Shown piece by piece: positions 21,701 through 58,844 of a stretch of DNA of 64,000 nucleotides. This stretch comes from Phyllobates terribilis (Eukaryota), in NCBI RefSeq assembly GCF_046119375.1, contig NW_027362767.1, positions 400,582,001 to 400,646,000 of the forward strand. Reading direction: 5' to 3'. The notes beneath the pieces were generated by a model. It did not search any database. It saw only the letters and a program-made list of their open reading frames with translations, and had not been told where the DNA came from. A program made the translations under genes and the position numbers. How positions within the stretch are numbered: position 1 is the first letter of the stretch; each line of letters opens with the position of its first letter.

Positions 21701-24700
21701 AATTAGAAATATAGTATAGTTCTTCTGATTCGCTATGTCTCTTTCCTCACGTGTAGGCATTCCAGGACCTTATGTAGCCATGGTTACGACCACTGATATA
21801 GTGACAGTTAGCTAGTGGCTGTAACCATGGATACCTAAGCTACTGCAATGCCTGCACATGAGGAAAGAAACACAGTGAATCAGAAGAACTATACTACATT
21901 TCTTATTGTAGGTATTTGCTAATATTATTATTATTATTACACCTACTACATATTGGGATAGGATCTTGGAGATGGGAATACACCTTTAAGTACTTCACTA
22001 TAATGATCTTCTTCCATCAAAGTCATTTCCTCTGGGCCGCCCCTTTAAATAAACATATAATGAAAAGATAGTTAACTTTCCAAAGGACTTTGGGTGAAAT
22101 TTATTATTTCATGTAAGATTTTGCTTGCATCAAAAAGTCATCCAAAAATTGGTAATAAAGTGGATGAGACTCAGGAAAAAAATAAAGAGCTCAACCAACA
22201 TGTGACAAATTAAAGGTGCTGTTCAGGAGTAGTAAAGAACATGGCCGCTTTCTTTTACAACAGCGTCACTCCTGAGTCTGGGTGGTGCCTGGTATTGCAA
22301 CTCAGTCCCACTGAAGTGAATGGAGCAAAGCTGCAGTACCGTGCACAATCCATGACCATGGGAGGTGCTGTTTTTCCAATCCTGGAAATCCACTTTATAA
22401 CATTTTATGATATGCCCAAGACTGGGAGAGTTCCTATTCACACACAGCAAGCAGAGGTCTTGGAAATTGTGACAAACTGAAATATTAGTTGTGGAACTTT
22501 CCATTCTTCAATATCGGACTGTTATATTACTCTATGGTGGTGACCGGCCATCTGTGCTCTCACCGATGTTGCTCAGCCCCATGTAGGTCACCATGCTTCC
22601 GCTCAAGTCCAGGCACTCTATAGGAACGTCCTTGTGCTGCAGGAAATCCCAGGTATAGCGCCCCCTGTGGTCTGGTCGAAACCACTCAGTGTGACCCTTG
22701 AACCTGGAGGAAAGAAATGTGACGATCAATGTAAAGGATGTCATGATATTAAAAGGGGGTTGTCCCAACCTGGCCAAGTTATCACACATAGGGGTCCGAC
22801 CACAGGGACCACCACCGACCCCAATAATGGGGCTCTATAATGCCCTGAGGGGCCATTCATGCCCTCCACTCCTCATGCCCTCCACTCCTCATGCCCCCCA
22901 CTCCTCATGCCCCCCACTCCTCATGCCCTCCACTCCTCATGCCCCCCACTCCTCATGCCCTCCACTCCTCATGCCCCCCACTCCTCATGCCCTCCATTCC
23001 TCATGCCCTCCACTCCTCATGCCCCCCACTCCTCATGCCCTCCACTCCTCATGCCCTCCACTCCTCATGCCCCCCACTCCTCATGCCCCCCACTCCTCAT
23101 GCCCTCCACTCCTCATGCCCTCCACTCCTCATGCCCCCCACTCCTCATGCCCCCCACTCCTCATGCCCCCCACTCCTCATGCCCCCCACTCCTCATGCCC
23201 TCCACTCACTGCCTAGTAGAAAAGTTATTTTTCCCCCCGTGATACGTAGGGCGCGGCGGCCATACCTCACTCCTCCCCTCTGCTCCAGCGTGTAGTACGT
23301 GGCAGCCGCGGTCTTTCCGTACAAAGCTTCTGTGAGATAAAAGTGTCTAAAAAAATAAAAAATAAAAAGGGAGAAAATGTAAATCAATTACCAGAAGTCG
23401 ATTTATAGGATTTCCGTACTCAATACTTAAACACAGGCATTTTGGGGTTTGGGGCTGAGGGTTGCTGTGGCAGCCAGAAGCCATACAAAAGTTTCCAGGT
23501 CTGTCACTTAAAGAAGCCCGACCATTGCAGGTTCAAGTCCTGCAGCTTGACTAGGTAAAGGAGTACCAAAAAAAGCACTTTGTTTCTTTCTAAGCCCAAC
23601 CATGTGCCCAACCAGCAGTTTACACCCACGTATAGGACATTTCTTTCCCCTGGAGAACCCACTTAACAAGTTATGGGGTCCATGTCTCTGGTGGCACTGA
23701 TATGGGAAATTTGTAGAAAAATTGACATTTTTATTTTGCACCATTCCCAGCGTATTAAGTTTCTTAAAAACCATCTATGGGGGACAAAATTCCCACTAAG
23801 CCCCCTGATAAATGCCTTAAAAGGGAAGGTGCCGTGATTTTTATTTTTGCATTAATAATTATTGATTATATAATCAATTATTTTTAATATAAAATTACAT
23901 TTACTGGTTTAATTGTTTTTCATTTATTTTTATTTTTTCAGCCACTGGGGGCTGCCATTTTAATTTGCCTACAATACGGCAGTACCTGGGCATAGGAGAT
24001 TACAGTCGCTGTCCGACCGTATCTCCTACACTGTGGCTGCCTCCTGCTGTGACCTGGGCTGTCCAGGTCACAGCTGTGCTGGGAGATCACGGCCATTTTG
24101 TTGCAGCCCGCAGCTACACTGTCATTCCAGTTTCCACCTGTCACCATCCACACTGTTCAGTGCATGCGGTGACAGGAGCTGCCAGGGAGCGCAGATCCGG
24201 AGTGAGGAGAGTACCAGCGGTGATCAGTAGCTTGGAATTAGTAGTACATTACCCGGCTGCCGATCACCGCTCCTCGCCGCTGTCACTGCAGTATTCAGAG
24301 CAAAGCAAAGTAATTATCACCCTGCTGTGCCCTTATCACTGACACTGCTCTGCTATATCATTGTAACGCCTCTGAAGGAGGCACACTGTCCCAAAGCAGT
24401 GGAGGACTATGGGGAGTGCATCATACTCTATGGAGGACTACGGGGAGTGCATTATACTCTATGGAGGACTACGGGGAGTGCATCATACTCTATGGAGGAC
24501 TACGGGGAGTGCATCATACTCTATGGAGGACTACGGGGAGTGCATCATACTCTATGGAGGACTACGGGGAGTGCATCATACTCTATGGAGGACTACGGGG
24601 AGTGCATCATACTCTATGGAGGACTACGGGGAGTGCATCATAGTCTATGGAGGACTACGGGGAGTGCATCATAGTCTATGGAGGACTACGGGGAGTGCAT

Positions 24701-27700
24701 CATAGTCTATGGAGGACTACGGGGAGTGCATCATAGTCTATGGAGGACTACGGGGAGTGCATCATAGTCTATGGAGGACTACGGGGAGTGCATCATAGTC
24801 TATGGAGGACTACGGGGAGTGCATCATAGTCTATGGAGGACTACGGGGAGTGCATCATAGTCTATGGAGGACTACGGGGAGTGCATCATACTCTATGGAG
24901 GACTACGGGGAGTGCATCATACTCTATGGAGGACTACGGGGAGTGCATCATACTCTATGGAGGACTACGGGGAGTGCATCATACTCTAAGGAGGACTACG
25001 GGGAGTGCATCATAGTCTATGGAGGACTACGGGGAGTGCATCATAGTCTATGGAGGAATACGGGGAGTGCATCATAGTCTATGGAGGAATACGGGGAGTG
25101 CATCATAGTCTATGCAGGACTACGGGGAGTGCATCATAGTCTATGGAGGACTACGGGGAGTGCATCATACTCTATGGAGGACTACGGGGAGTGCATCATA
25201 CTCTATGGAGGACTACGGGGAGTGCATCATACTCTATGGAGGACTACGGGGAGTGCATCATACTCTATGGAAGACTACGGGGAGTGCATCATACTCTATG
25301 GAGGACTACGGGGAGTGCATCATACTCTATGGAGGACTACGGGGAGTGCATCATACTCTATGGAGGACTACGGGGAGTGCATCATACTCTATGGAGGACT
25401 ACGGGGAGTGCATCATACTCTATGGAGGACTACGGGGAGTGCATCATACTCTATGGAGGACTACGGGGAGTGCATTATACTCTATGAAGGACTACGGGGA
25501 GTGCATTATACTCTATGGAGGACTATGTGGAGTGTATTGTACTATATGGAGGACTATGTGGAGTGTATTGTACTATATGAAGAACTATGAGGAGTGCATT
25601 ATACTATATGGAGGACTATGGGGAGAGCAGTATACTATATGGAGGATTATGGGGTGCCTTATACTGTATGGAAGGCAATGTGGGTGCTATTATATTTGGA
25701 GGAATATGTAGGGGGACATTATACTGTATGCAAGCAATTACACAGTGTGAAGCTTTGTGTGGGGTCCATCATACTATGTGGGGGCCATAATACTATTTGG
25801 AGAGCTAGTGAGGGCCATTATACTGCATCGAGGGCTGTGTGGGGATCACAGTTGGGGGATCATACTTTGTTGGGGTCAGCATACTTTTCCGGGGGAGTTG
25901 AGGTGGGGCACAGTAGGGTCATTATACTGTGCATGTGGAGGAATTCACCATGGGGGTATCATACTTTCTTTGTGAATACTTTTGTTGGCATCATACTTTA
26001 TGGGGGCAATGAAAGGGGAATCTATGACTTCAGTAGGAGGAAAATTACTTTGTAAGGGCTGCAAAGCTGTGAGTTGTGCTCCTTTGTGAACCTGCCGAAT
26101 ATTATTTTCTTTTATGGGGGGAGGGGGCCCAATTAGAACTTCTGCTTTGGGACCCCATGATTTCTATGTACGCCCCTACCCAATATCTTATATCTAACTT
26201 TCCGGCATCCAGCAATAAACAATGAAACGCAAGGAAAACGGTGCAACATTTTTAATGAAAATTAATTTTAGCACAAAATACGAGAATTTAAAAAAAGAAA
26301 TAAAACTGTCCCTATTGTTGTCAATATCTTATAAGGTACAAGTTATTTTTCAAGATAACATACAGATGTATCAGAGTACAGGAGCGGCCGTGTGCCCTGA
26401 GTCATCTATAGGATCTCAATATGTAGCTCAGACCCGTGTATCTAATCCCAACATCGTGTTTGATACTCTTCACAGTCGACACAACATATTAGATAACGAG
26501 AAGACATATTTGTGGAAAAATTGAAATTTTTTTTACTTTGAACCAAAGTACATTCATTTTTGGAAACACCTGTGGGGGGCAAAATGCTCACTACCCCACT
26601 AGATAAATTTTTTTTAAGGGGTGCAATTTCCAAAATAGGGTCATTTCATGGAGGTTTCCAGTTTACGATGCCTTAGGGACTCTGTAAATGCAACACGGAG
26701 CCCAAAAACCTTTCCAGCTAAAACCATTAGGCTTTCCTTGCCATGCGCCAAACAGTCGTGCACGACCACACATAAGGCATCGCCTACCCCAGAAGAATTT
26801 TGGAGCTCTTGTTCTATTTTTAGTCTTTATCTTATGGATAAAACTACATTTTAGAGAAAAAAGTTTAATGTTTCATTTCTGCTGCCCAATTGTTTAAAAA
26901 AAAAAGAACAAAAAAACAGTGGGGTCAAAATCCTGACTATATCTTGCTGGAGGCCGACATAGACCTTTTTTCACAAATGTAGGCAAGGTGGTTACATATT
27001 AAGAGGTCCCTTTGTTTCAAAGACAATCCTGAATATCTTGGAAGAACCTGTGGACATTTACATATTAAACAACCTTTATCTCCCAAGGAATGGAGGGGCT
27101 CCAAGATCAAAGCCGGGCTACAATGTCTGCCAGTTGTGACTGCAAGACAATGGCACAGCCTCGGGGGTTGTATGACCAGTCCGAGGTAGTCATGATGGGA
27201 CCTTCTACATGACCCTTGAATCTCTAATTCTTACTAGACCTGAAGGTCCCCGTCCACATTAGACCAATATCGACAGGCCCAGCCGAAAATCGACAGGCCC
27301 AGCTGAAAATCGACAGGCCCAGCTGAAAATCGACAGGCCCAGCCGCTACTCTAATATATTTAATGGTGCTGAATAAATTGATCGTTGGGGGAGATAAAAA
27401 TCCATCATGTCCAATTTCAGACTGGAGATCATTATTTCCGGCAGCACAGGTCCTTTTTATATAAGTTGATGTGCTGCCGAGAACGATGATTTTTTTTTTA
27501 ATGCAAGCTTAAAAATCACTTCGCCGAACGTACGACCATTTCGCTAGTACGTTGGAAGATCGGCAGCCTGTTTACACCGAATGATAGGGAATTTTGATTG
27601 CGAACCCCAATGGGGACAGTGATGACAATACTATCAAACCCCTTCATTTATTATTACCTTGCACCCCAAAACACACCTGTAAAAAACTTCTCAAAGTGGT

Positions 27701-30700
27701 GTCGTTTCAAAAAAAAAAAAAACATAGGGGCATTTACACCTTATTGGTGCCTCCTAAATTCTGCAAGTGTGACATGGACCCCTGTAATAAAATTCCAGCT
27801 AAATCTGCACTCCAAAAGTAAAAAAAAAAAATCCTGTTTCTTTACCGCTGGGAGCCAAAACAATAGTTTACAGCCTGATATAGGGTATTTCAGTAGTCAG
27901 GAGAGATTATGTAAATAGCTTTTTACTTTTTTTTCTTATTAGACCTTATAAAAATCACACCGGGGCTCTGAGCAGAGTTAAAGGGGTTTTGTCACCTTTG
28001 TGATCATTTTTTTTCTTACTTAAATAAGTCTTTTGTCTAAAAATTATTTTTGTAATTGGATTACATTAAAAACGTTGCACCGTTTACCTTATATAACCTC
28101 TGTGTTGCTGACTGGAGAATTAGTTAACTGAGAATCGGTCAGTGAGCTCGTTCTGACAGTCCAATCGGGGAGTTTCTATGGCGGACCACCACCTTCTCTA
28201 TCTATAGGTTGATGCGGACCCATCTCTAGCACAGAATACATACTGATTCTTATTCTTCAGTCTCCAAAACTTGAAGCTGGCGTTCCACTTCATTAGAGCC
28301 TGGAAGGAGGGAGAGTGAGTCAGAAGAAACTGCAGGACCTTCTCCTTGGTTTCAGAAGAAGAGGTGGATGATCGGTAACATCGGATGCCATGACTGATGG
28401 CCGGCAGCGCTCTGACACTCTGCACCTGAGACCAGACAGGAAAAACCATGACAAACTACACCCCAACATTCCGACATTCCGATGATTTAACCCCTTAATC
28501 GTGCAGCCATTTTAGCACTTTCCTTTTTTACCTCCCATCTCCCAAGAGCTAGAACTTTTTTTTTTTTAACTTTTTACATAGACATAAGAGGGCTTGGTTT
28601 TTTGCTTTTTTTTGGGGGGGGGGCAAAGGCGGGGGGGAGACGGAGATGTCGTTTTGAATGACACCATTCATTTTACTGTAGAATGTGCTGGAAAATAGTA
28701 ATAAATAAATAAAAAATATACAGAATTCCAGCATTTATTTATTTTCGTTATTATATCATTCACTGTGAGGTAAAAATTATCAGGCAATACAATTCTCCAG
28801 GTCAGTTAAAAAAAAAAAAAAAAAATGTTTTTTAAAAAAATCAAATAGAAAAATAAATAAGTATATTATATATATGTATATACACATAAAATAAGTAATA
28901 TATATATATACACACATATATAATATATATATAATTTTTTATTATATGTACAGTACAGACCAAAAGTTTGGACACACCTTCTCATTTAAAGATTTTTCTG
29001 TATTTTCATGACTATGAAAATTGTACATTCACACTGAAGGCATCAAAACTATGAATTCACACATGTGGAATTATATACTTAACAAAAAAGTGTGAAACCA
29101 CTGAAAATATGTCTTATATTCTAGGTTCTTCAAAGTAGCCACCTTTTGCTTTGATGACTGCTTTGCACACTCTTGGCATTCTCTTGAAGAGCTTCAAGAG
29201 GTAGTCACCGGAAATGGTCTTCCAACAATCTTGAAGGAGTTCCCAGAGATGCTTAGCACTTGTTGGCCCTTTTGCCTTCACTCTGCGGTCCAGCTCACCC
29301 TAAACCATCTCGATTGGGTTCAGGTCTGGTGACTGTGGAGGCCAGGTCATCTGGCGTAGCACCCCATCACTCTCCTTCTTGGTCAAATAGCCCTTACACA
29401 GCCTGGAGGTGTGTTTAGGGTCATTGTCCTGTTGAAAAATAAATGATGGTCCAACTAAACGCAAACCAGATGGAATAGCATGCCGCTGCAAGATGCTGTG
29501 GTAGCCATGCTGGTTCAGTATGCCTTCAATTCTGAATAAATCCCCAACAGTGTCACCAGCAAAGCACCCCCACACCATCACACCTCCTCCTCCATGCTTC
29601 ACGGTGGGAACCAGGCATGTAGAGTCCATCCGTTCACCTTTTCTGCATCGCAAAAATACACGGGGGAGGAGTCCTTAGGAGATAATTTGCATATTCCCAC
29701 TGCATTTTGGGGTAAGTGAAGAGTCTCCGCGAGCTCAAAGAACACTGGATTTTGGCTGTTGGAGCTGAAAAGAGGACATCGGTAAACCGCGCGCCTACTG
29801 GCGCGCGCATTTTGAAGCTTTTTTCACTGTTTTCAGAACATTAACATTAAGAACATGGAAGAGTCCAGGACCCATTTGGTGAGCTGCATATCCTGCTACA
29901 TGTTCACAGACTTGCCAGTGGAAAAGCCAAACTTCACATGCCAGAAATGCAAGCTTGTGTCCCTGTTGGAGGAAAAGTTGCGAAATCTAGAAGAGAGGTT
30001 AACTACCTTGAAAATCATTAAGGAAGGTGAAGAGTTCTTAGACAGAGCAGAATTATCTCTTCATGATTCAGAAAGAGAAGAAATTCGAACTGCACCTGAC
30101 GAAACAGAGGAATGGAAGCATGTGACCCACAGAAGCAGGAGGATCGAGAGGCAGTCAGCACCTATACTGCTCAGGAACCAGTACCAGGCTCTCACGCAGG
30201 AGAACCATGAAGAAATACAGCAAAATAAGACTTTGCCAGCAATGAATAACCTTGTAAGCCCTCAGAATCCTCCTGGATGGAGAAAGAAGAATGTTGTGAA
30301 GAAAAAACGGAGAGTGGTGGTCATGGGGGATTCCCTGTTAAGAGGAACAGAGGCCGCTATCTGCAGACCAGACATAACCTCAAGAGAAATGTGCTGTCTT
30401 CCAGGAGCAAAAATTAAAGATGTGTCTGACAGGATATCAAGACTCTTCAGACCTACAGATCACTACCTATTCCTGCTAATACATGTGGGGACAAATGACA
30501 CCGCAAGAAAGGACCTGGAAACCATCTGCAGTGACTTTGAAGACTTAGGCAAGAAAGTGAAAGAATTGGGAGCGCAGGTGGTCTTCTCATCCATCCTCCC
30601 AGTGGATAGCCATGGAACAATGAGGTGGAATAAGATTCTACAGGTGAACAACTGGCTACGTCGATGGTGCCGTCAACAAGGATTTGGATTTCTGGATCAC

Positions 30701-33700
30701 GGAATGAATTACCTATACGATGGACTACTTGCTAGAGATGGGGTGCACCTTACGAAGACTGGAAAACATGTATTTGGAAGTCGCCTTGCTACACTCATCA
30801 GGAGAGCTTTAAACTAGAACAATGTGGGAAGGGAAGCAAAAGGCCAGAAAAAGCCATACAGCTGACAAATACTATTGAGATCTCTGCTATTGGAAGTGGA
30901 AAGAAAGAACAAAGACAAAACAATTTAAATAATAAAAATATGGGAGGAAGAGAAACCAATCACAAACTAAAATGCTTTTATACAAATGCACAAAGCATGG
31001 GCAACACACAAGGAGAATTGGAACTACTAATGCAGGAAAAGGAATATGATGTAATTGGAATCACTGAAACTTGGTGGGACGATACACAGGATTGGAATAA
31101 AAGGCTAAAAGGATACAACTTATTTGCAAGAAACAGACTTGATAAACGAGGAGGAGGTGTCGCATTGTATGTTAGAAAAGCGTATATCTGCACAGAGATT
31201 GAAGCTTCAGAGACTGGGAGTTCTGTGGAAACTGTTTGGGTAAGAATAAAAGGAGAGAACAACGGAAAGGACACCATTGTAGGCATTTACTACAGGCCAC
31301 CTGGGCAAGCTGAAGATATGGATGAACTCTTTATGTATCAAATGACCAAGTTCTCCAAAAAATATGACGTAGTGGTCATGGGAGATTTCAACTATCCAGA
31401 CATTTGTTGGGAATCTCTCTCAAGTAAAACTAACAGGTCAAGCAAATTCTTATCCTCTCTTGCTGACAACTTTATCTTCCAAAAGGTAGGGGAGAAAACA
31501 AGGGGATCTGCTACTTTGGATCTAATCCTTATAAACAGGGAGGAAATGGTTGAGGAGGTAAAGGTGGCTGGGACCCTAGGAGGCAGCGATCATGCTATTA
31601 TAGAATTTTGGATAACTAGAGGAGGAAGACATGTGAAGACTCAAACTTTAAGGTTAGATTTTAGAAAGGCAGATTTTAAGAGACTCAGAAAGAGAATAGG
31701 AGGGATCCAATGGCTGGATGTCCTTAAGGACAAAAATGTCCAGGAAGGATGGGAAATTTTTAAAAATGAGATTCTCAAAGCACAATCGTTAACAATCCCG
31801 AAAAGTAGGAAGAATGGGAAGCATTTAAGGAAACCAGGATGGATGAACACAGAACTTAAACACATGCTAAAAAGAAAGAAAGAAATGTTTATTAAATGGA
31901 AAGAGGGAGGCATATCTAAAGAAGATTATAATGCAGTCTGCAGATCCTGCAGGGCACGTATCAGATTAGCTAAAGCTGACAATGAATTAAGGCTTGCAAG
32001 AGATGTCAAAAGCAATAAAAAAGGATTTTGGGGGTATGTCAAAAGTAAAAGAAAAGTCAAAGATGCTATAGGATTTTTACAGGATGAAAATGGAGAAATG
32101 GTAAGAGAGGATGTTGAGAAGGCCGAACTTTTTAACTCCTATTTTGCATCTGTTTTCTCTCAGAAAGAAAATGTAACATCAACTAATCTTCACTGTCCTT
32201 TTAAAGGAATAGAGGAATCCAAGTTATCTGTAAACAGAAAGATTGTGAGGGAATATTTAACTAACATAAATGAGTTCAAGTCTCCAGGTCCAGATGAATT
32301 ACACCCCAGAGTACTGAAGGAGATCGTAGAAGAAATTTTAGAACCACTCTCCATAATCTTTGAAAATTCTTGGAGAACAGGAGAAGTCCCAGAAGACTGG
32401 AGAAGAGTAAATGTTGTTCCTATCTTCAAAAAGGGGAAGAAGGTGGACCCAGGGAACTATAGGCCGGTGAGTCTGACTTCTATACCAGGAAAGATCTTTG
32501 AACAAATTATTAAACAACATGTATGTAAGTACCTGGATAAGAATGAAGTGATTAACCAGAGTCAGCATGGGTTTGTAACTAACAAGTCATGTCAGACTAA
32601 CTTAATTTCCTTCTATGACAGAATCACTGACTGGGTGGATCAGGGAAATGCTGTAGATATAGTATATCTTGACTTCAGCAAAGCATTTGACAAAGTATCT
32701 CACACCATCCTTATTGAAAAAATGACCAAGTATGCAATGGACCAGGCAACTGTTAGGTGGATTCATAACTGGCTTAGTGATCGGACTCAAAGGGTGGTTG
32801 TAAATGGCTTCACATCCAGCTGGATGAATGTCTCAAGTGGGGTACCACAGGGCTCCGTCCTGGGACCTGTATTGTTCAACATCTTTATCAATGATTTAGA
32901 TGAAGGAATTGAGGGTAAACTGATTAAATTTGCTGATGACACAAAGCTAGGAGGGATAGCTAATACTAGAGAAGAGAGAGAGAGGATTCAAAAAGACCTA
33001 AATAAACTGGAGCAGTGGGCAGCAACCAACAGAATGGTTTTTAACAGGGAAAAATGCAAAGTACTACATCTGGGCAATAAAAATGAAAAAAGCATATACA
33101 GAATGGGAGGAATAGAGCTAAGCAACAGTACATGTGAAAAAGACTTAGGTATACTAATAGATCATAGACTGAACATGAGTCAACAGTGTGATGCAGCAGC
33201 AAAAAAGGCAAATACAATTCTGGGATGTATTAACAGAAGCATACAGTCTAGATCACGTGAAGTCATTATCGGTCTTTACTCCTCTTTGGTCAGACCTCAT
33301 CTGGAATACTGTGTACAGTTTTGGGCACCACATTTTAAAAAAGACATAGACAAACTGGAGCAAGTTCAGAGAAGAGCGACCAGAATGGTGACTGGTCTGC
33401 AAACCATGTCCTATGAGGAACGGTTGCAGGATTTGGGAATGTTTAGCTTGTAAAAAAGAAGACTGAGAGGAGACTTAATAGCTGTCTACAAATATGTCAA
33501 GGGCTGTCACATTGTAGAAGGATCATCTTTATTCTCATTTGCACAAGGAAAGACTAGAAGCAATGGGATGAAACTGAATGGGAGGAGACACAGATTAGAT
33601 ATTAGAAAAAACTTTTTGACAGTTAGGGTGATTAATGAGTGGAACAGGCTGCCACGAGAGGTGGTGAGTTCCCCTTCAATGGACGTCTTCAAACAGAGGC

Positions 33701-34728
33701 TGGACAGACATCTGTCTGAGATGATCTAGTGAATCCTGCTTTGAGCAGGGGGTTGGATCAGATGACCCAGGAGGTCCCCTCCAACTCTACCATTCTATGA
33801 TTCTACGGTGGTTGGAACCAAAGATCTCAAATTTGGACTCATCAGACCAAAGCACAGATTTCCACTGGTCTAATGTCCATTCCTTGTGTTCTTTAGCCCA
33901 AACAAGTCTCTTCTGCTTGTTGCCTGTCCTTAGCAGTGGTTTCCTAGCAGCTATTTTACCATGAAGGCCTGCTGCACAAAGTCTCCTCTTAACAGTTGTT
34001 GTAGAGATGTGTCTGCTGCTAGAACTCTGTGTAGCATTGACCTGGTCTCTAATCTGAGCTGCTGTTAACCTGCGATTTCTGAGGCTGGTAACTCGGATAA
34101 ACTTATCCTCAGAAGCAGAGGTGACTCTTGGTCTTCCTTTCCTGGGGCGGTCCTCATGTGAGCCAGTTTCTTTGTAGCGCTTGATGGTTTTTGCAACTGC
34201 ACTTGGGGACACTTTCAAAGTTTGCCCAATTTTTCGGACTGACTGACCTTCATTTCTTAAAGTAACGATGGCCACTCGTTTTTCTTTACTTAGCTGCTTT
34301 TTTCTTGCCATAATACAAATTCTAACAGTCTATTCAGTAGGACTATCAGCTGTGTATCCACCAGACTTCTGCACAACACAACTGATGGTCCCAACCCCAT
34401 TTATAAGGCAAGAAATCCCACTTATTAAACCTGACAGGGCACACCTGTGAAGTGAAGACCATTTCTGGTGACTACCTCTTGAAGCTCATCAAGAGAATGC
34501 CAAGAGTGTGCAAAGCAGTCATCAAAGCAAAAGGTGGCTACTTTGAAGAACCTAGAATATAAGACATATTTTCAGTTGTTTCACACTTTTTTGTTAAGTA
34601 TATAATTCCACATGTGTTAATTCATAGTTTGATGCCTTCAGTGTGAATGTACAATTTTCATAGTCATGAAAATACAGAAAAATCTTTAAATGAGAAGGTG
34701 TGTCCAAACTTTTGGTCTGTACTGTGTG

Positions 34729-35850: not shown

Positions 35851-36539
35851 GCCGGTTGATGTGTGGATTTAGAGTTTTGAGTCGTGAACATATTTAACCA
35901 TTTAGTTACCATAGATGTGTGTGTAGATATTTTTTTTATTCTGTGTGTGGCTCTGGTGGTTAGTGACCGCCTTAGAAACGCTTGTTGGCAGCCACTAACA
36001 TGAAAAGAAAATAATAAATTGGTATCGCTTTAATTGTATGGAAATGAATGAGGCATCTGCCCTGCGCAATTATAATTGCGGGAACGGGCATTTACCCAAT
36101 CTCATGTTGTAAGGAGGCTGCCGGTCACCTAACGAGTAAAATATAAACAAACACAATACACTGTTCTCGGCAGCACACCGTCCTGTGCAGATACATCATG
36201 TGCTGCCGAGAACACAATGTCCTATGCGCACAGGACGATCTTATTCACCAGCGGTCTGTGAGACGAGCGGGCGGCCGGTCTATTAAGGATAGGACCACCC
36301 AACTACAAATGCGCAGCCAATCACCGGTCATCTAATGCAACTCGTACGGATGTGACGGCAAAGTATAGAAAGGAGTTGTAGGTTTTGGAAGACACAGAGG
36401 CAAAAAACGATGGGGGGGGGGGTGGGCTATAATTAGAGGTAGACTCAGTGGCCGAGCAAGTGCCCGGAGCAATGAAAGCATAATGCAGAAATAATGCTCC
36501 CCACCTTCGAGTCAGCCCCTCCGCCCTCCCAAAAAATAA

Positions 36540-36729
36540 AGGTTTTGCACTGTAGCTTTACAGCGCTGGGGTCCAGGGTTCAAATCCCACCAAGGACAAC
36601 ATCTGCAAGGAGTTTGTATGTTCTCCCTGTGTTTGCATGGGTTTCCTCCGGGTTCTCTGGTTTCCTCCCACACTCCAAACACATACTGATAGGGAATGTA
36701 GATTGTGAGCCACAATGGGGACAGTGATG
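36540..36729 (+). mobile_element. tRNA-derived V-SINE (5' degenerate) with an L2-like tail
   Basis: B box GGTTCAAATCC at 36577-36587; V-domain gttctccctgtg...gggtttcctccggg...ggtttcctcccac; tail tagattgtgagcc resembles the L2 3' end at 57462-57474. Confidence 0.75.
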
Positions 36730-38575
36730 TACAGACCGTCCGGGTCTCCTGAGCTGAGCTTGACAGCCTCATCTATCCCTATGAGTCCGTCAAGTCCAGG
36801 TTATGGGAGTCCCGGGCCAGGGACCGTGTTAAACGGACGTCTAGGAGAAAACTTTGCCCGACTTCGCCAGCAGCCGTTACTTGTGTGACCTCCTCTTTTG
36901 CCTGGGACTCGCCGCTTTACTTTTGTCTTTTTTCGAGCTTGCTTTGCTATTTTTATATTTTGAAAATTAGGTAATGGGACATTTATTATTCTGAAACCCA
37001 CAAGTTGGGATTTGTTACTTTGAAAACAGAACTTGAGGAACAGACTATTTGCTATACAAGATAAAATAAAAGATTAACTGGCAAAATGCATCACTGGCTG
37101 TATAAATCTGTGGTCTGTAAGGGTGGCGGCCCCCATGTCAAAGTCAATAAAAGGACCCTCACGGTAACAAACCCGGAGAGCGTCTCCATTATACTCCTCA
37201 GGTGCCTGTTGCGTGTTGTCTCTCTGAGCCGACCAGCAATTTTCTCACCCCAAAGGGGAAAAACTAACTAAATTGACCTCCACAGAAAGGGTGAAGTCCC
37301 TGTGTTTGGGACTAACTGAAGTTCTGCAGTAACATTTCCATGTTGAGTGACAACCTACTTTGAGGCTGGATATAGACACTTTGTACCCCTTTTTCTCAGC
37401 TACGCTAGGGGTTTTCAGATTTAACCTCCAGTTTATTAACTTGTATAACCTGTCTGATTGGCATCTTAAAATTTAAAGAAGTCCGTCCCTTCAAAAGTGC
37501 TGTAACGGGTCTGGGAGGTGGAACCTCTGAGCTACGATACAAAGGGGCAGTCCTTGTAAGGAAGCGGGTGGCTCCCAGGGTAGGCGGGCAGGTAGTCACG
37601 GCAAGTGACGGGGACAGTCTCTGGGTAGAAGGGCAGGAGGTCACGGCAAGTGACGGGGACAGTCTCTGGGTAGAAGGGCAGGAGGTCACGGCAAGTGACG
37701 GGGACAGTCTCTGGGTAGAAGGGCAGGAGGTCATGGCAAGTGACGGGAACAGTCTCTTGCCAGGCGGGTGGTCACGGCAAGTGACGGCGAAGCCTCCAGA
37801 TAGGCTAGCAGGCGGGTAGCAGGTGGACGCTCCCAGGTGAGCGGGCAAGAGTCTCTGGCCAGGCAGGTGGTCACAGCAGGTGACGGCAGAGCCTCCAGGT
37901 AGGCGAGCAGGCAGGTAGCAGGCGGACGCTCCCAGATGAGCGGGTAAGAGTCTCTGGCCAGACAGGTGGTCACAGCACGTGACGGAAGAGCCTCCAGGTA
38001 GGCTAGCAGGCAGGTAGCAGGCGGAGGCTCCCAGGTGAGCGGGTAAGAGTCTCTGGGCAGGCAGGTGGTCACAGCATGTGACGGCAGAGCCTCCAGGTAG
38101 GCTAGCAGGCAGGTAGCAGATGAGCGCTCCCAGGTGAGCGGGCAATCAAATCCATAGACAGACTGGCAGGGCTGGTAGGCAGACTGTCGGACTGCAGGAA
38201 TGCAAGTAGATAGACAAGTATCAGGCAGGTATCAAGCAGGAATCTGGCAGGTAACTGGTAGGTAACTGGTAACGGGACCTGAGGGCTGAAGCAGAGTGAT
38301 AGACTATGCAACAACATTGCTCGGACACCTCCATTTTGGAGGAGGTGCCTTATATATGGTGAGGTCCTCCGGCCATTGGCCAGGGACTCCTTAGGACAGC
38401 GCGCGCGGCCCCTTTAAGAGAGGGGAAGCGCGCGCCCTAAGCACAGTGGCCGGGAAGCAGCGCGCGCTGCCAGCAGAGCGGGAGGAGGACGCTGGGCACG
38501 GAGCGGAGAGGTGAGGGGAACAGCGTCCCTGCCTAGCAGGAGGCAGGGACGCCGACGCTACAGTACCCCCCCCCT

Positions 38576-41500
38576 TTAGGCCTCCCCCTTTTTTAGGCCG
38601 GAGAGAAATTTATCAAGGATGAGAGGGGCATGGATGTTCTCCCGGGGCTCCCAAGTTCTCTCCTCAGGACTAAACCCCTTCCAATCCACTAGAAAAAAGG
38701 TCTTTCCTCTTACCCTTTTGGTGGCCAGAATGCTCTCTACCTCAAACTCGTTTTCAGCGGAAACCGGAGCAGGAGGTGTACCTGTAGACTTGGAAAAAGA
38801 GTTAAGTACCACGGGTTTGAGGAGAGATACATGGAAGGAGTTAGGGATCCGCAAGTTGGCCGGGAGTTTCAATTTATAGGCCACTGGGTTGATTTGTTTG
38901 ATAACTTCCAGTGGGCCGATGAACCGAGGCCCTAACTTGTAGGAAGGAATCTTGAGCCGGACATACTTGGACGAGAGCCAGACTTTATCTCCAGGATGGA
39001 ATTGTGGAGGATCCAGGCGTTTTTTGTCAGCGTGTTTTTTCATCCGCTCGGACGACTGAAGGAGTGCGGATCGGGTACTCTCCCAAATGGAGGAGAATTC
39101 GCTAACGAGAGATTCCGCAGCCGGATTGTCCACTGAGGTGGAGACGGGAAATGGGATCCGAGGATGCTGACCGAAGACTACAAAAAACGGGGATTTGGAG
39201 GAAGATTCGCTCTCGTGATTATTGTAAGAGAACTCGGCCCATGGTAAAAGATCCACCCAGTCCGAATGGTGGGCATTAACGAAGTGCCGGAGATAAATGG
39301 TCAGGATCTGATTGATCCGCTCCACTTGACCATTGGACTGTGGGTGGTAAGCGGAGGAGAAGTCCAGGGTGACGTCCAGCAGCTTACATGTGGCTCTCCA
39401 GAAGCGTGAGGTGAACTGAACCCCACGATCCGACACGATGTGGAGGGGCAGGCCATGGAGACGGAAGATGTGGCGGATAAAGTCTTTAGCCAGCTCGGGT
39501 GCAGACGGGAGGCCCGGCAGGGGAATGAAGTGAGCCATCTTGGAAAAGCGGTCAGCGACCACCCAAATGACCGTACAACCGGCAGAGACAGGGAGATCCG
39601 TTATAAAGTCCATAGCTATATGCTGCCACGGGGCAGCAGGTACAGGAAGAGGAAGGAGGCGACCGGCTGGCAGATGTCTCGGAACCTTGTTGCGGGCGCA
39701 GGACACACAGGCTGAAACAAAGTCTATTACGTCCTTGGGCAGGGTAGGCCACCAGTAATGCCGGGTAATAAGCTGGAGGGTCTTTTTCTGACCGGCGTGG
39801 CCAGCTAGCTTAGACGAGTGACCCTAGTGTAGGATCTTCTTCCGATCAGGTACTGTTACGAACGTCTTACCGGGAGGGAGACGATTTAGATTCACGGGGG
39901 CCACCTGCATTACTCTGGCGGGATCAATGATGTGCTTAGGCTCCTCCTCTAGATCAGACACCAGGAAGGATCGGGACAAGGCGTCAGCTTTGATGTTTTT
40001 GTCAGCCGGGCGAAAATGAAGAACGAAATCAAAGCGGGCAAAAAACAAGGACCACCGGGCTTGGCGCGGGTTAAGTCTCTGGGCGCTCTGGAGGTAAGCC
40101 AAGTTCTTGTGGTCCATGTAAATAATTACCGGGTGAAGAGCCCCCTCGAGCAGGTAACGCCACTCCTCCAGTGCCAGCTTGATGGCCAATAACTCTCGGT
40201 CTCCTATAGAATAATTGCGCTCAGAAGGGGAGAAGAGTTTGGAGAAGAAGCCGCAAGTTACCATTCTTCCGGAAGACGACTTTTGGGTAAGTACCGCTCC
40301 GGCTCCAGAGGAGGAGGCGTCCACTTCCAGGAAGAATTGTTTGTTGCCGTCCGGACGATGCAGCACCGGGGCGGAAGAGAAAGCCTGTTTTAAGGAAAGA
40401 AAGGCTTCCTCTGCTTCGGGCGGCCATTCTCTGGGATTAGTACCCTTACTGGTGAGCGCAGAGATTGGGGCAGTCCGGGAAGAGAAGTGCGGTATGAAGA
40501 GGCGGTAGTAGTTGGCGAAGCCCAGGAACCGCTGAATAGCCTTCAACCCCTCTGGTCGGGGCCACTTCTGGATGGCAGACAGTTTCTCAGGATCCATTCG
40601 TAGGCCGGTCTGAGAGATTATGTAGCCCAAGAACGGAAGCGAGGTCTGCTCAAAGAGGCACTTCTCATATTTAGTCTAGAGGTGGTTCTGCCTGAGCCTG
40701 AGCAGGACCTGACGAACATCCCTCCGGTGAGTGAGAAGATCCGGAGAGAAGACCAAGATGTCGTCCAGGTACACCACTACGCAGGAGTAGAGAAGGTCCC
40801 GGAAGATGTCATTGACCAACTCTTGAAAGACGGCGGGAGCGTTACAGAGACCGAAGGGCATTACAAGGTATTCATAGTGGCCGTCCCGGGTGTTGAATGC
40901 CGTCTTCCATTCATCACCTGACGGATATGGACCAGGTTATACGCCCCACGGAGGTCCAGATTGGTGAAGATTCTAGCCCCCCTCAGACGGTCAAATAATT
41001 CCAGAATGAGCGGAAGGGGGTATTTGTTCTTCACCGTGATCTGGTTAAGGCCTCTATAGTCTATACAGGGACGGAGTGAGCCGTCCTTCTTTTTGACGAA
41101 GAAGAAGCCTGCTCCCGCCGGGGAGGTCGATTTCCGGATAAATCCCCGGGCCAGATTCTCCTCAATATATTCAGACATGGACCGGGTCTCAGCAGCGGAC
41201 AAAGGGTAAATACGCCCACGGGGAGGAGTAGCGCCGGGCATCAGGTCGATTGGGCAGTCGTATGGTCTATGAGGGGGTAATGTCTCTGCCTCCTTTTTAT
41301 TAAAGACGTCCGCATAAGACCAATAGGGAACCGGAAGACCAGGTAGATTGGCTGGGGTAGGAGAAGGACGGACAGGATGGACGGGAACTAAACAAGTCTT
41401 ATGGCAGTCCTGTCCCCAGCGAAGGACCGCTCCGGTCTGCCAATCAAGCACGGGTGCATGTTTCTGAAGCCAAGGTAGACCTAGCAAGAGGGCGTGAGAG

Positions 41501-41832
41501 AGTCCAGGCAGAACATGAAAGAAGATGCTCTCAGAGTGCAGCATTCCCACTTGCAGGGTTATGGATTCGGTGATGAGTTGGATGGGATGTGGTAAGAGGC
41601 CCCCATCCACGGCAGCGACAGATAAGGGTACAGCCAGAGGTTTGGTGGGAATGCGGTATTTCTCTACCAGGGACTGAGAAATGAGATTTCCGGCAGCTCC
41701 AGAGTCAAGTTGGGCTAGTTCAAAATAACGGTTCTCCCCGCAGATGATAGAGACCGACAGCAACAGAGATGGAGAGGGTTTACTCTTGTCTAGGACAACC
41801 TCTCTGAGCGATCCTAGACACAGGCGTTTCCC
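38576..41832 (-). pseudogene. Gypsy Pol (PR-RT-RNaseH-IN-chromodomain) with three lesions
   Basis: LDSGA, YLDD, VDASS...ELLAI, HHCC, MDFITDL, GQVERIN, GPF, chromodomain FEVESIL...WKGFSPEERTWEP. A 1-bp deletion near 40918; TAG at 40676-40678 and 39824-39826. Confidence 0.92.
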
Positions 41833-42764
41833 GACCTCTCCGGGCAGGAACGGATCCTGTGCTCCTTACTGCCACAGTAGAAGCAGCTCCCCTCGGCTCG
41901 GCGTAACTCTTGACGGTTCTTGACCATCTTGGTCTGGTTGACCTGCATAGGCTCGGGTGAGTGCGCCTGGGGAGTAGCGGGAGAAGTGACAGGTTTCTGA
42001 AAGGTAGGGGCTGGACGTGGAAACCTCCTCTCACGGGTGACCTCTTTGGCGCGTTCCTGGAACCGGATGTCAATCCGGGTGGCAAGAGTTATTAAGTCGT
42101 CGAGAGTGGTAGGTATGTCCCGACCGGCGAGTTCATCTTTAATACGGCCGGACAGACCCTCCCAAAAGACAGACACCAGGGCGTCGTTATCCCATGCCAA
42201 CTCCGAAGCAAGGGTACGGAACCGTATGGCATATTGGCCCACGGTGAGATTTCCTTGATGGAGGCGTAGCAGAGATGATGCGGATGAGGTCTTCCGTCCG
42301 GGTTCGTCGAAGACTTTCCGGAAAGCCGTGAGAAAGGCTGGCAGGTTGGACACCAGGGGGTCTCCTCTCTCCCATAGAGGATTTAGCCAAGCCAGTGCCT
42401 CCCCCGTGAGATGGGACATGATGAAGGCTACTTTGGCCCGATCTGAGATAAACTGGTGGGACAGGAGTTCAAAGTGCAGGGTGCACTGGTTTATGAAGCT
42501 CCGAGCTTGAGCGGGGTCGCCTCCGAAGCGAGGAGGTGTAGAAAGCCGGGGTCCGGGGCAGGATGCCATGGTATTGGTGGGCAGCGGCGCTGCCGGGCTG
42601 CGAGTCATGACACTAGCGGTGGTTGCTGGTGGAGCAGTCAGAGTGTCCAGGCGAGAGTTGACATTCCGCAGATGACTCAGGATGGACTCCTGTTGGGACC
42701 TCTGATGGGACATTTCATGACATAGGTCCGAGAGCGAGGGAGCTTGGGTGCCACCGGGTTCCAT
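41814..42764 (-). CDS. Gypsy Gag (PEG10/RTL-like capsid + CCHC knuckle), 316 aa
   Basis: PPRFGGDP...[32 protein letters not shown]. Confidence 0.92.
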
Positions 42765-44018
42765 GGCCCGAGCAAACTGTAACGGGTCTGGGAGGTGGAA
42801 CCTCTGAGCTACGATACAAAGGGGCAGTCCTTGTAAGGAAGCGGGTGGCTCCCAGGGTAGGCGGGCAGGTAGTCACGGCAAGTGACGGGGACAGTCTCTG
42901 GGTAGAAGGGCAGGAGGTCACGGCAAGTGACGGGGACAGTCTCTGGGTAGAAGGGCAGGAGGTCATGGCAAGTGACGGGAACAGTCTCTTGACAAGCGGG
43001 TGGTCACGGCAAGTGACGGCGAAGCCTCCAGATAGGCTAGCAGGCGGGTAGCAGGTGGACGCTCCCAGGTGAGCGGGCAAGAGTCTCTGGACAGGCAGGT
43101 GGTCACAGCAAGTGACGGCAGAGCCTCCAGGTAGGCTAGCAGGCAGGTAGCAGGCGGACGCTCCCAGGTGAGCGGGCAAGAGTCTCTGGACAGGCAGGTG
43201 GTCACAGCAGGTGATGGCAGAGCCTCCAGGTAGGCTAGCAGGCAGGTAGCAGGCGGACGCTCCCAGGTGAGCGGGTAAGAGTCTCTGGGCAGGCAGGTGG
43301 TCACAGCAGGTGACGGCAGAGCCTCCAGGTAGGCTAGCAGGTAGGTAGCAGGCGGACGCTCCCAGGTGAGCAGGTAAGAGTCTCTGGGCAGGCAGGTGGT
43401 CACAGCATGTGACGGCAGAGCCTCCAGGTAGGCTAGCAGGCAGGTAGCAGGCGGACGCTCCCAGGTGAGCGGGTAAGAGTCTCTGGGCAGGCAGGTGGTC
43501 ACAGCACGTGACGGCAGAGCCTCCAGGTAGGCTAGCAGGCAGGTAGCAGATGAGCGCTCCCAGGTGAGCGGGCAATCAGATCCATAGACAGACTGGCAGG
43601 GCTGGTAGGCAGACTGTCGGACCGCAGGAATGCAAGTAGATAGACAAGTATCAGGCAGGTATCAAGCAGGAATCTGGCAGGTAACTGGTAGGTAACTGGT
43701 AACGGGACCTGAGGGCTGAAGCAGAGTGATAGACTATGCAACAACATTGCTCGGGTACCTCCATTTTGGAGGAGGTGCCTTATATATGGTGAGGTCCTCC
43801 GGCCATTGGCCGGGGACTCCTTAGGACGGCGCGCGCGGCCCCTTTAAGAGAGGGGGAGCGCGCCCGCGCGCCCTAAGCACAGTGGCCGGGAAGCAGCGCG
43901 CGCTGCCAGCAGAGCGGGAGGAGGACGCTGGGCACGGAGCGGAGAGGTGAGGGGAACAGCGTCCCTGCCTAGCAGGAGGCAGGGACGCCGACGCTACAAA
44001 TGCCACCACTTCCTAATA

Positions 44019-54140: not shown

Positions 54141-57100
54141 TATTAGTAAATACTTCCAATTAGAAATGTAGTATAGTTCTGCTGATTCGCTATGTTGTTT
54201 ACCCCATGTGCAGGGCACTGCAATAGCTTAGGTATCCATGGTTACGACCATTCATATAGTAACAGTTAGGTATCCATGGTTACAACCACTAAGAACTAAC
54301 TGTCACTATATGAGTGGTCGTAATCATGGATACCTAAGCTACTGCAATGCCCTGCACATGAGGAAAAAGACATAGCGAATCAGAAGAGCTGTACTACATT
54401 ACAAATAGGAGGTATTAGCTAATATTACTATTATTACACCTAGTACATATTGGGATAGAATCTTAGAGATGAGAATAACCCTTTAAATTTATCTGCAGGT
54501 AAATAGCATTTTCTGAGACGACAGGTTCCCTTTAAGGCCTCCATACATATTAGAGAAAAGTCGGCTGAACCTGTCGAATTTCGGCATGACCTCTTGCCGA
54601 ACTAACGCAGACCAAGCCCGATCTATCTTCCACAATCAAAGACTCTGAAAGTTGGATCGTCCATATTGAAATTTTAGCCCTTGATCCTGTGGTTCTCCCT
54701 GGAGAGGAGCTGTGAGGGGTCCTGTAGTATCTTTCCTCATTGAAAACATATGCACGCTTAGCAGAACTGAGCGTACATGTGTATGGGTGGGAGAGGGGAT
54801 CAGGAGTTATGGCTGTCGTTCAGGGTGTAAGACCACCTTTATAGTATGGGGAGCACAGTACCATACAGAATGCAATCAAATCCTCAATTCACACCGAGAC
54901 CCACCTTCAGTCTAAACCACGCAGAAAGGGATCCTGGATAAGAGCCTCCAAAGCAAATCCAAGTGTTATTCGGTGTCAAATTATATTTCTGAGAGATGAA
55001 CAGATGGAAAGAAGCCAGATCTGCAAGCCTAAGTAATGAGATGCGAAAAGAAAAGATGAATATATAGAAATTAAGCAACAGTCCAAACGATAGCCGGCAC
55101 TCACATCTTCTTAAAGGAATAGCTTTATTGATCCAGAAGTATAAACGGCACAAAAAATGGTTGAAAACAATAGCACAAAAATTAAAAAGGCAGAAAAGAA
55201 ATATCCACTGCGCTCCCAGGCAACATGTTTCAGACCTACAGTACATGGCTTGATAAAGGACTATGTAGGTCTGAAACATGTTGCCTGGGAGCGCAGTGTT
55301 CAACCATTTTTTTGCGCCTTTTATACTACTGGATCAATAAAGCAATTCCTTTAAGAAGATGTGAGTGCCGGCTATCGTTTGGGCTATTGCTATTACTGGA
55401 GTATTTTGCCGGGCACTTGGACAGGTGAGCCATTTGCTCCTTGTTCACATTTATATGGAAATTAAAAGGTACAATATCAAGACAAGGAGTAGAAATGCTA
55501 GAAAATATTCATTATGGTGAAGCAGGTCTAGCTGTTCTGATGTATAAAGAGTTTATTTCCGTCCTGGTGTGCGAGGTGTGGATATACACGTCCGTACTTA
55601 CGCCTGCTGGCTGGACAGGAACCTTATTGCTTGAAGGGTCAATCCATCTTGATTGATGCTGGCTCCATAATACCGATGTTCAAGAGACACCAGAAGGGCT
55701 TGATGTTTCTGAGCCAACTCCACGTGCTCGCCTACATGGGAGTTACATTTACTTATATTAATTCTCTTAAAAGAGACAATAAAGTCATTATAAAAAATAA
55801 AAAAAAAGTAAATATTAAAAATGAGCAAACAGACGAAAACTACCGAGGTCCGGTGTCCAAATCTGGTGCACTGTGGCACCTGGATCAGGGCAGTGTTGAC
55901 TTCTGCCATGGTAATGCTCTGCCCGACAGCCAGGGCGCCTCTTCCGATTACTGGTCTCTTGTGACGTCATGACTATGCTGGGGCATAGTAAGTCGCAGAA
56001 CTGGTGTCTTCCCCTCATGCTTCAAACATGCCTCAATCACACCCATCCTTGACCCATCCTCTCTGGCTAGCTATCGTCCGATATCACTTCTCCCTTACGC
56101 CTCAAAACTACTGGAACAACATGTCCATTCTGAACTGTCCTCCCACCTCTCCTCCTGCTTCCTCTTTGACCGCTTACAATCTGGCCTCCGACCGCATCAC
56201 TCCACTGAAACTGCCCTGACTAAAGTCACCGACGACCTACTAACCGACAAATCCAAAGACATTACTTTGTCCTTCTCCTTCTGGACCGGTCATCTGCCTT
56301 TGACACAGTAGACCATTCCCTCTTACTATAGACGCTCATCTCTTGGCATCACGGACTTGGCCCTATCTTGGATCTCCTCATACTTAACAGACAGGACATT
56401 CAGTGTCTCCCACTAACACACCACCTCCTCATCTCGCCCCCTATCTGTCGGTGTCCCCCAAGGTTCAGTCCTAGGACCTCTGCTCTTCTCAATCTACACC
56501 TTCGGTCTGAGACATCTCATAGAGTCTCACGGCTTTCAGTATCACCTCTATGATGACGACACACAGATCTACCTCTCTGGACCTGATATCTCCTCCCTAC
56601 TAACTAGAATCCCACACTGCCTGTCCGCTATCTCATCCTTCTTCTCTGCTAGATTTCTAAAACTTAATATGGATAAAACTGAATTCATCATCTTTCCCCC
56701 CCATCTCACTCAGCACCCTCATCTGACCTATCCATCAAAATCAATGGCTGTCCACTTTCCCCAGTCCCACAAGCTCGCTGCCTTGGGGTAACCGTGGACT
56801 CTAACCTCTCCTTCAAACCACATATTCAAGCCCTTTCCACTTCCTGCCGACTCAAACTCAAAAATATCTCCCGGATCCGCACATTTCTCAACCACGAATC
56901 TGCAAAAACACTAGTCCATGCCCTCATCATCTCCCACCTCGACTACTGCAACCTCCTGCTCTGTGGCCTCCCTTCAACCACTCTCGCACCCCTCCAATCT
57001 ATCCTAAACTCTGCTGCCCGACTAATCCACCTGTCCGCCCGCTATTCCCCGGCCTCTCCTCTCTGTCAAATGCTTCACTGGCTCCCCATTACCCAGAGAC

Positions 57101-58844
57101 TGCAGTTCAAAACTCTAACCTTGGCATACAAAGTCATCCACAACCTGTCTCCTCCTTACATCTGTGACCTAGTCTCCAAGTACACACCTACACGCAACCT
57201 CTGATCCTCACAAGGTCTCCTGCTCTACTCCCCTCTTATATCATCTTCCCACAATCGCATACAAGATTTCTCCCGTGCATCCCCCCTACTCTGGAACTCT
57301 CTACCCCAACACATCAGACTCTCGCCTACCGTGGAAACCTTCAAAAGGAACCTGAAGACCCACCTCTTCCAACAAGCCTACAACCTGCAGCAACCACCGC
57401 TCCACCATACCGCTGCACGACCAGCTCTGTCTTCACCTACTGTATCCTCACCCATCCCTTGTAGACTGTGAGCCCTCGCGGGCATGGTCCTCTCTCCTTC
57501 TGTACCAATTTGCCGTTGCTTTTTTGCTCAAGAGTATTGTAATTGTTTTTGCTATGTATAGCCCCGTTTTCACATGTAAAGCGCCATGGAATAAATGGCG
57601 CTATAATAATAAATAATAATAATAATAAAGTGTCCAGACAGAATAACCACTGCAAAAGTGAACCCTGCCCTGATCCAGGTGCCACTGAGAACCAAACTGG
57701 ACCATGGCAGGTTGTATCTTTTTTGCTCATCTCTAGTAAAAAAAAAAATCTATCAGTCAATCTTCAAGAATTTCTGTAAGCCCTGGAAAAAGTTATGTAG
57801 AAATCTGACAATGGTCCATCTCCAACTTCTGCGGGTAAACAAATGAGTGCCTGAGGTCAGGGGTGTAGCAAATCACCGTTAAGCACAATATCAAGCCTTC
57901 TACCCGGAGGGAACATCTTAATCAAAGGTGAAGGGTCTTTTTTTTTGGTTTTGTTAGTAGACAGGACTGTGGGGGGAGGTTTCTGCTTCCACAACCTGCC
58001 TCCCAGCCAGTCACAATAGTATAACCACGCCTTGAGAAAACCGATACCTCCTTGCCACATATCCAAGCTTTGCGATACACCAGCGTGAGACAGTGGAGTC
58101 AAGGTAGAGAAGATCTTTGCAAGCGTTTCTATTTTTTTTTTTAATTTAATGCCCAATTTATTCAGTGCCCCATTACTCTTGACCAAATACACAATAAGCA
58201 TCAATTACTGTTCTTCAACCTTGTCACAATAGGCTGGAGATATTTATTAAATGTACGTGCCAAATAGACAAGTGCCATGTCTCATACTAACCGGCTAATA
58301 CTGAGAATTCAGACTCGGCGCTCTCCCCTCCAATAAACAAGAAGACGGGTCCACCGGGGCGTCTCCAAAATTCTTCATTTATCCAATATCTCTGCAGAAA
58401 AAAAAATTCCCAGTCTTTAAAAAAAAAAAAACTTAAATGGATTGAGCACATTAAAAGGTGTCACATCAGCCACCTTGGCAATCAGCTGATATTTCGCGGG
58501 AAAGCCGACATTTTTGGCCACGCATCTCCAAAGTGGGAATAAATGGATGACCTTGTAATATAATGGCCCAATGATAGGGGAAGGGGGAATTATTTTAGCA
58601 ATTTGCAAAACTTTTGTAGCATAAAAAGGTTGCACAATATGGCTATTTCCTAAATCATTTTGGACTTTAAAAAGTAGTAAGATAATTGGTGCTGGGTTAA
58701 CCAGGTGGAGGTGGAACCAGCAAGTTTCCGACAGAGTAAGTCTATGTTCACATGTCCAGTAATCATCTGTTAGAACGGAACCAGCAAGCAAAATGGGAGA
58801 ACAATGGATGGCTAATTAACAGATCCGTTGTCCATAGACTTCAA

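Follow-up and report, generated by a model that had tools for sequence, protein, structure and literature searches.

A conserved slippery heptamer at the ORF1–ORF2 junction of esterase-type CR1 retrotransposons, a probable recoding signal

The junction between the two open reading frames of esterase-type CR1 LINEs, found here in a 64,000-nt window of the Phyllobates terribilis genome, is real and conserved and probably a recoding signal. We put at roughly 80% the probability that a programmed −1 frameshift at this junction makes a minor ORF1–ORF2 fusion protein of ~1,290 aa in these elements. Because distant relatives keep the slippery heptamer and the adjacent stop codon and ORF2 is open in the −1 frame, slipping ribosomes probably produce the CR1 copying enzyme in fused form. 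How ORF2 is translated from a bicistronic LINE RNA is a long-open question to which reinitiation is the usual answer, and in most vertebrates CR1 is described as dominant among retrotransposon groups (PMC13343379).

A full-length CR1 copy and its ORF junction

The window contains a full-length CR1 copy on the plus strand (29664..33804), assigned to family F1 and 98.8–99.1% identical to four siblings, two of which align across 29663–33805. Direct reading of the flanks revealed a likely 4-bp target duplication, ACGG, at 29660–29663 and 33805–33808. ORF1 (29855..30817, plus strand) encodes a 320-aa protein of the SGNH esterase type, laid out as N-terminal Cys pairs, a long helix (residues 30–79), a low-confidence linker and the esterase (153–319). 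Its profile matches the ZfL2-1 ORF1 esterase 4c1b (E = 7e-40), the Pfam match to Lipase_GDSL_2 (E = 2.9e-7) lies slightly below the family cut-off, the structure model has a mean pLDDT of 83.5, and the nearest named relatives come from poison frogs. ORF2 (30964..33729, plus strand) encodes an APE endonuclease and a reverse transcriptase (Pfam Exo_endo_phos, E = 3e-17; RVT_1, E = 3e-35); among named sequences, ORF2s of reptiles and birds are the closest to it. In this copy, ORF2 carries a premature TAA at 33451–33453 and its natural stop at 33727–33729; the four siblings (L266–L269) lack the premature stop, and their frame, counted from the heptamer, stays open for 973 codons. The 3′ UTR ends in a hairpin and a short ATTCT-type tandem tail (33748..33804, plus strand) with no poly(A), features that we take to be marks of CR1. 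An SGNH esterase ORF1, an APE and RT ORF2 and a hairpin with a tandem tail were thus all found, and the sequence is accordingly classed as an esterase-type CR1 LINE.

The host genome measures 10.6 Gb. The copy is inserted in a minus-strand transposase gene, the two halves of which (29300–29659 and 33809–34329) both read as ORFs; by its motifs, we take this gene to be a Tc1-like transposase. Elsewhere in the window, GC-rich and strongly skewed blocks (36001–44000, 22001–26000 and 56001–58000) are probably other repeats. Among database proteins, one CR1 ORF1 (P0044), located on a 2.9-kb contig, is annotated as a Klebsiella SGNH hydrolase, which probably reflects contamination by host DNA.

The 3′ end of ORF1 reads ...AGG AGA GCT TTA AAC TAG, which places the slippery heptamer T_TTA_AAC (30808..30814, plus strand) in the X_XXY_YYZ register of ORF1, with the TAG stop (30815..30817) directly 3′ of it. 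This position and register had been proposed in the initial annotation, together with an ORF2 in the −1 frame, open from 30736 through the heptamer, and 44 stop-free codons between the heptamer and the first in-frame ATG; the sequence and its ORFs confirmed each of these, the −1 frame running on to the TAA at 33451–33453. The open linker (30808..30939, FKLEQCGKG...) contains stops in both other frames and leads to the ATG at 30940..30942, the position of which is not kept across other lineages. A fusion of ~1290 aa, as expected from the same annotation once the late stop is repaired, agrees with our figure of ~1,291 aa and with the 973-codon open −1 frame of a sibling. Two further features were absent from that account: an out-of-frame ATG heading a short ORF, 5 nt past the stop (30822..30824, plus strand), and the conserved G-rich tract GGGAAGGGA (30826..30834, plus strand), a candidate stimulator 12 nt past the heptamer. 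The heptamer is the single canonical one in register among 321 ORF1 codons, and one occurs among 838 ORF2 codons; the −1 frame stayed open from heptamer to ATG in 3.4% of 10,000 spacer shuffles.

We propose that most ribosomes would stop at the UAG and release ORF1p, and that a fraction would slip, the Leu and Asn tRNAs re-pairing to UUU (or GUU) and AAA. CUA would then be read next, giving the junction ...RALN/LEQCGK..., and the slipped ribosomes would continue via the linker into APE–RT. More weakly, we infer a pause caused by the adjacent stop together with the G-tract at +11 to +20; the tract might work at the mRNA entry channel, either as a linear element or with a protein bound to it, or through pairing with the 3′ UTR. 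In RNA data, three raw runs yielded 0, 0 and 1 read, and the contigs of one run guessed to be RNA contained no joint at the junction, an outcome that carries no weight as evidence.

Nucleotide conservation of the junction across CR1 lineages

Thirty close F1 copies kept the heptamer in 29 cases and an open −1 frame in all 30; these loci, at 98–100% identity, hold almost no evolutionary signal and the query had included the junction, and they were rejected as a test. Protein queries yielded three further families in the same genome, F2, F3 and F4, with the junctions TGT TTA AAC TAG, GCG TTA AAC TAG and TTT TTA AAC TAG, respectively. Metagenome contigs were scanned with two peptide patterns taken from the esterase front, far from the junction; this gave 73 loci, many of which stop short of the junction. 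Altogether, 273 loci were examined, an ORF1 end with its stop was present in 219, and clustering at 80% nucleotide identity produced 32 clusters. The comparison set comprised 20 lineages, namely one copy from each of 19 clusters plus one F4 copy (F4 clusters with F2), representing the four P. terribilis families and 16 lineages from metagenome contigs; pairwise ORF1 identity was 0.15–0.85 (median 0.30). These lineages are related to one another, a lone metagenome copy may have decayed, and the copies chosen were the best-scoring ones; two clusters are represented by non-first members (L125 for L099 (TTA CGA) and L116 for L103).

The set omits 13 clusters. Four are splits of F1/F4 with the heptamer intact (L215, L221, L228 and L240), three have a frame broken upstream with TTTAAAC still there (L100, L121 and L133), one is broken with FKL in its translation (L234), three carry at least one substitution in the heptamer or stop (L023, L224 and L148), one has the junction deleted (L194), and one is a distant esterase with no heptamer, the available DNA of which lacks an endonuclease (L159). 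The decayed copy L234/L271 (G000:C2:190940700-190946000) may be a fifth family; its junction shows FKL, an apparent TAA stop and the same G-tract. In L194, an F2 copy (G000:C271:1743797 onward), the loss of 7 nt at the junction creates one 1,299-codon frame across ORF1 and ORF2; as a single copy, it is no evidence of function. Viral contigs and plasmids contained no CR1, nor did GTDB contigs searched with alignment A1. GTDB searched with alignment A2 gave 20 loci, made up of SGNH genes of bacteria and three loci of distant esterases; the heptamer was absent from all of them. A genome search with the outlying esterase and a QGN-ending protein returned F2 and F4 only, with no L2 control.

Across the 20 lineages, the terminal Asn codon is always AAC and the terminal Leu codon is TTA in 19/19, the twentieth lineage having ATA. 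Elsewhere in the same ORF1 stretches, TTA accounts for 32 of 279 Leu codons and AAC for 42 of 96 Asn codons, and 23 further columns, each conserved in 70% of rows or more and of the same ancestry as the terminal codons, have top-codon shares of 0.32–0.80. The base preceding TTA is T in 18 lineages and G in the other two; it closes codons for seven different amino acids (A, C, F, S, T, Y and H), and positions farther upstream vary. The heptamer is therefore exactly T_TTA_AAC in 17/20 lineages, G_TTA_AAC in 2 and decayed in 1, with a stop directly after it in all 20 (TAG in 18, TGA in 2). The two G_TTA_AAC variants fall on separate branches of an ORF1 tree built from 16 of the 20 rows, without L109, L123, L142 and L161, which are broken upstream. 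By copy, the heptamer is intact in 69/71 F1, 47/49 F2, 20/20 F3 and 18/19 F4. Synonymous variation at the Leu and Asn codons, one of the findings that would have refuted the initial annotation, was seen in none of the 20 lineages, whereas the control columns vary freely. The expectation that the codons stay GCT TTA AAC stood for TTA AAC, which is fixed, but not for GCT, given the seven amino acids and the two G_TTA_AAC lineages. Because the Leu and Asn codons are fixed while the control columns vary, and the codon before them ends in T or G for each of seven amino acids, the conserved unit is (T/G)TTAAAC-stop, and selection acts on its nucleotides and not just on the peptide.

The same codon comparison bears on whether the protein, or inheritance, could account for the junction by itself, the esterase needing a Leu-Asn end and the codons being kept by descent or by overlap with a functional part of the ORF2 N terminus. 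Leu-Asn is the commonest ending and closes the last helix of the ORF1 model, where the slippery site is predicted to lie at the helix end. Against this, synonymous codons are freely mixed at each of the 23 control columns, the −1-frame FKL lies upstream of every AUG and is readable by a shift only, and more distant esterase ORF1s have other endings. The codon comparison already largely refutes this explanation, which we consider highly improbable.

Protein databases gave a similar picture of the ORF1 end: 171 of 245 ORF1-like proteins reach the model end, and 154 stop there. An RALN* ending, given in the initial annotation as recurrent in vertebrate CR1 ORF1s, survives in its last two residues, with LN at 124 of the 154 complete ends, and not in the preceding Ala, where 12 different residues occur; LN is the ending in 37 of 62 non-redundant ORF1 clusters. 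Three proteins end in ELN, which is incompatible with U at the first heptamer position. Distant ORF1s end in QGN (six proteins), SKN (one) or KDF (one), endings compatible with the slippery words G_GGA_AAC, A_AAA_AAC and G_GAU_UUU, respectively; no DNA behind these proteins was found in the genome, viral or GTDB contigs, leaving a protein-only lead.

The conserved block might also be read at the RNA or DNA level, with TTTAAACTAG as a 3′ splice site or other such signal and ORF2 expressed by splicing or from a separate transcript. CTAG resembles a YAG acceptor in 18/20 lineages, and an upstream exon joining ORF2 would likewise require a kept phase and an open linker. However, TGA replaces TAG in two lineages, a pyrimidine tract is lacking, AAA being invariant, and the block is exactly an X_XXY_YYZ heptamer in the ORF1 register, so that we give this reading very little credence.

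The ORF2 frame and the route to its translation

Downstream DNA was present in 18 lineages, and the endonuclease N-x-x-S motif was found in 17, L123 being decayed. ORF2 lies in the −1 frame in 15 of these 17, at ten distances of 110–284 nt, and 13 are stop-free; L099 and L142 have ORF2 in the +1 frame, and L097 and L116 have stops in the linker. The −1-frame stops between heptamer and ATG that the initial annotation had asked about are thus infrequent, the frame being kept in 15/17 and mostly open (13/17). In six lineages with 32–47 codons and no AUG, the chance of an open frame is 0.025–0.15 per lineage, and each of the four families has single genomic copies in which the frame, counted from the heptamer, is open for 973–988 codons. 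Among ORF2-frame gene models, 5 of 119 (from a lizard and three bird species) have FKL..GEG in the endonuclease frame, upstream of the endonuclease; most others are chimeric or begin within the spacer, and are uninformative on this point. One F1 copy (L040) carries a ~1.2-kb insertion in the linker, between the stop and ORF2.

By copy, the frame is −1 and open in 67 F1, 28 F2, 18 F3 and 9 F4 copies, and 16 of 45 F2 copies with a scored frame and 10 of 19 F4 copies are out of register at the G-run. These losses mostly track G-run length; in F4 (e.g., L235–L257 and L293–L332), a run of 7–12 G right past the junction varies and often breaks register. Among 41 unique F4 copies, the most frequent run length is the in-frame one, with 17 copies and a further single copy at each of 20 and 26 nt; where the run is interrupted, five of six copies keep the frame. 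This spread fits homopolymer slippage, a reading that stays under a caveat because nearest F4 neighbours share run length in 21 of 41 cases versus 10 expected, partly through near-identical clustered copies. Several near-identical F4 copies cluster on contigs C3, C721 and C1.

The main competitor is termination–reinitiation at a nearby AUG or non-AUG codon, in which the heptamer, stop and G-tract would hold the ribosome and no fusion would be made (or both routes would operate). It is the usual model for LINE ORF2 (PMC5009743; SART1 in PMC10275272), an in-frame AUG lies 3 nt past the stop in L091, L093 and L095 and 12 nt past it in F3, and out-of-register F2 and F4 copies are common. Yet it does not account for a heptamer and ORF2 that keep their −1 phase across ten different spacer lengths, or for a frame that is open before the first AUG. 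Viral TURBS place stop and start within about 20–30 nt, as described in PMC10275272, whereas here 123 nt separate the two and an out-of-frame AUG comes earlier; 5 of 17 lineages (L091, L093, L095, L109 and F3) have TURBS-like spacing. Moreover, four lineages (L116, L119, L126 and L131) have no in-frame AUG ahead of the endonuclease motif, and in F2 the in-frame AUG is just three codons ahead of the motif Asn, inside the first strand. We regard reinitiation as unlikely and frameshifting as the better account. Since CR1 lineages without ORF1 exist (PMC13343379), ORF2 can nonetheless work without a fusion.

Candidate stimulators and known frameshifting systems

The initial annotation saw no obvious downstream pseudoknot, in keeping with our finding of no stable local fold 3′ of the site in the four families (z from −2.0 to +1.5). 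Pseudoknot-free folding of 60- and 100-nt windows in the same families gave no stable stem-loop at the usual 5–9-nt spacing. At +11, +12, +13, +14 and +15 past the heptamer, G is present in 17, 19, 17, 17 and 15 of 19 lineages, respectively; the tract also encodes Gly, usually GGG, in the −1 frame. The earlier idea of the adjacent stop as sole stimulator therefore needs amending: the stop is kept in 20/20 lineages, but it is probably not the only stimulator because the G-tract is held at a fixed distance. By eye, four G-tracts suggestive of a G-quadruplex could be read in F2 and not in F1.

In the F1 siblings, GGAAGGGA is perfectly complementary to TCCCTTCC, which lies in the terminal hairpin and ranks first among the windows of the element; the complementary stretch, at 33775–33782, has one mismatch in this copy. 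This window ranks in the top 0.1% in F1, the top 4–5% in F2, 5–14% in F3 and 39% in F4. Pairing with the terminal hairpin was rejected as a general rule, given the weak ranks in F2–F4 and a cross-family matrix that is not diagonal. The best partner of the G-tract in F3 and F4 is another 3′ UTR stretch, and in F2 the 3′ UTR is not better than the element body for the 16-mer tested. Shuffled tracts reached the real energy in 15, 31, 8, 18 and 1 of 150 cases in five copies, with windows picked after looking. The partner site differs between families and is locally paired; on co-folding, F1, F3 and one F2 copy form the duplex, whereas F4 and the second F2 copy do not. The 3′ UTRs themselves are of two kinds, short in F1 and longer, multi-hairpin and with an ACTATGT-type tail in F2, F3 and F4 (last 200 nt of L258–L265 and L254–L256). 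Long-range pairing between the G-tract and the 3′ UTR is thus suggestive, a tentative possibility.

If the conserved −1 site works as proposed, it would set a defined ORF1p:ORF2p ratio and, in the way that Gag-Pol is attached to Gag, anchor the enzyme to multimers of ORF1p. It would account for ORF2 models without a usable start, alter the annotation of intact CR1 copies and add one more natural frameshift site without obvious local structure; if the pairing with the 3′ end is also true, the enzyme would be made from full-length RNAs only. A bolder picture, which we find rather doubtful, would have the main LINE clade of non-mammalian vertebrates make a retrovirus-like esterase–APE–RT fusion, with the G-tract pairing with the element's own 3′ end ~3 kb away and relatives swapping slippery words.

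No report of CR1 frameshifting was found in the open full-text papers searched, PMC5006619 and PMC11835228 among them; the original CR1 descriptions of the 1990s may mention the overlap. The word 'frameshift' is absent from the text of PMC13343379 and PMC3905857 on esterase-type CR1, and CR1 is not named in the portion searched of the frameshifting text PMC5009743. What emerges is probably a known mechanism, −1 frameshifting, in a clade for which no description was found, with a G-tract at 11–15 nt added to the initial annotation. The element shares its esterase ORF1, APE–RT ORF2, and hairpin with tandem tail with the canonical esterase-type vertebrate CR1 described in PMC13343379 and PMC3905857. 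Among APE-type non-LTR elements, a review states in one line that translation of ORF2 in Dictyostelium TRE5-A/TRE3-A depends on a −1 frameshift (PMC5911963), a precedent with an unrelated ORF1 and host.

Parallels in the site itself come from viruses. The coronavirus 1a/1b site U_UUA_AAC is the same heptamer, and the CR1 first-base variant recurs in equine arteritis virus, where G_UU(A) is a working first triplet, both shifting −1 into the polymerase frame (PMC5009743); unlike these sites, CR1 has no pseudoknot or stem-loop at 5–9 nt and has its stop directly adjacent. A stop directly or 3 nt past the heptamer, as in CR1, is described for BYDV, RCNMV and GRV/umbravirus (PMC4737148). In sites of the BYDV/RCNMV type, a 3′-terminal sequence pairs near the site, which may have a counterpart in CR1, but there the distant element completes a local stem-loop of a kind not found in CR1 (PMC4737148). 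Protein-stimulated sites have C-rich tracts where that of CR1 is G-rich; at the arterivirus nsp1beta/PCBP and cardiovirus sites, as with the CR1 G-tract, a short linear element lies ~11–15 nt away (PMC5009743).
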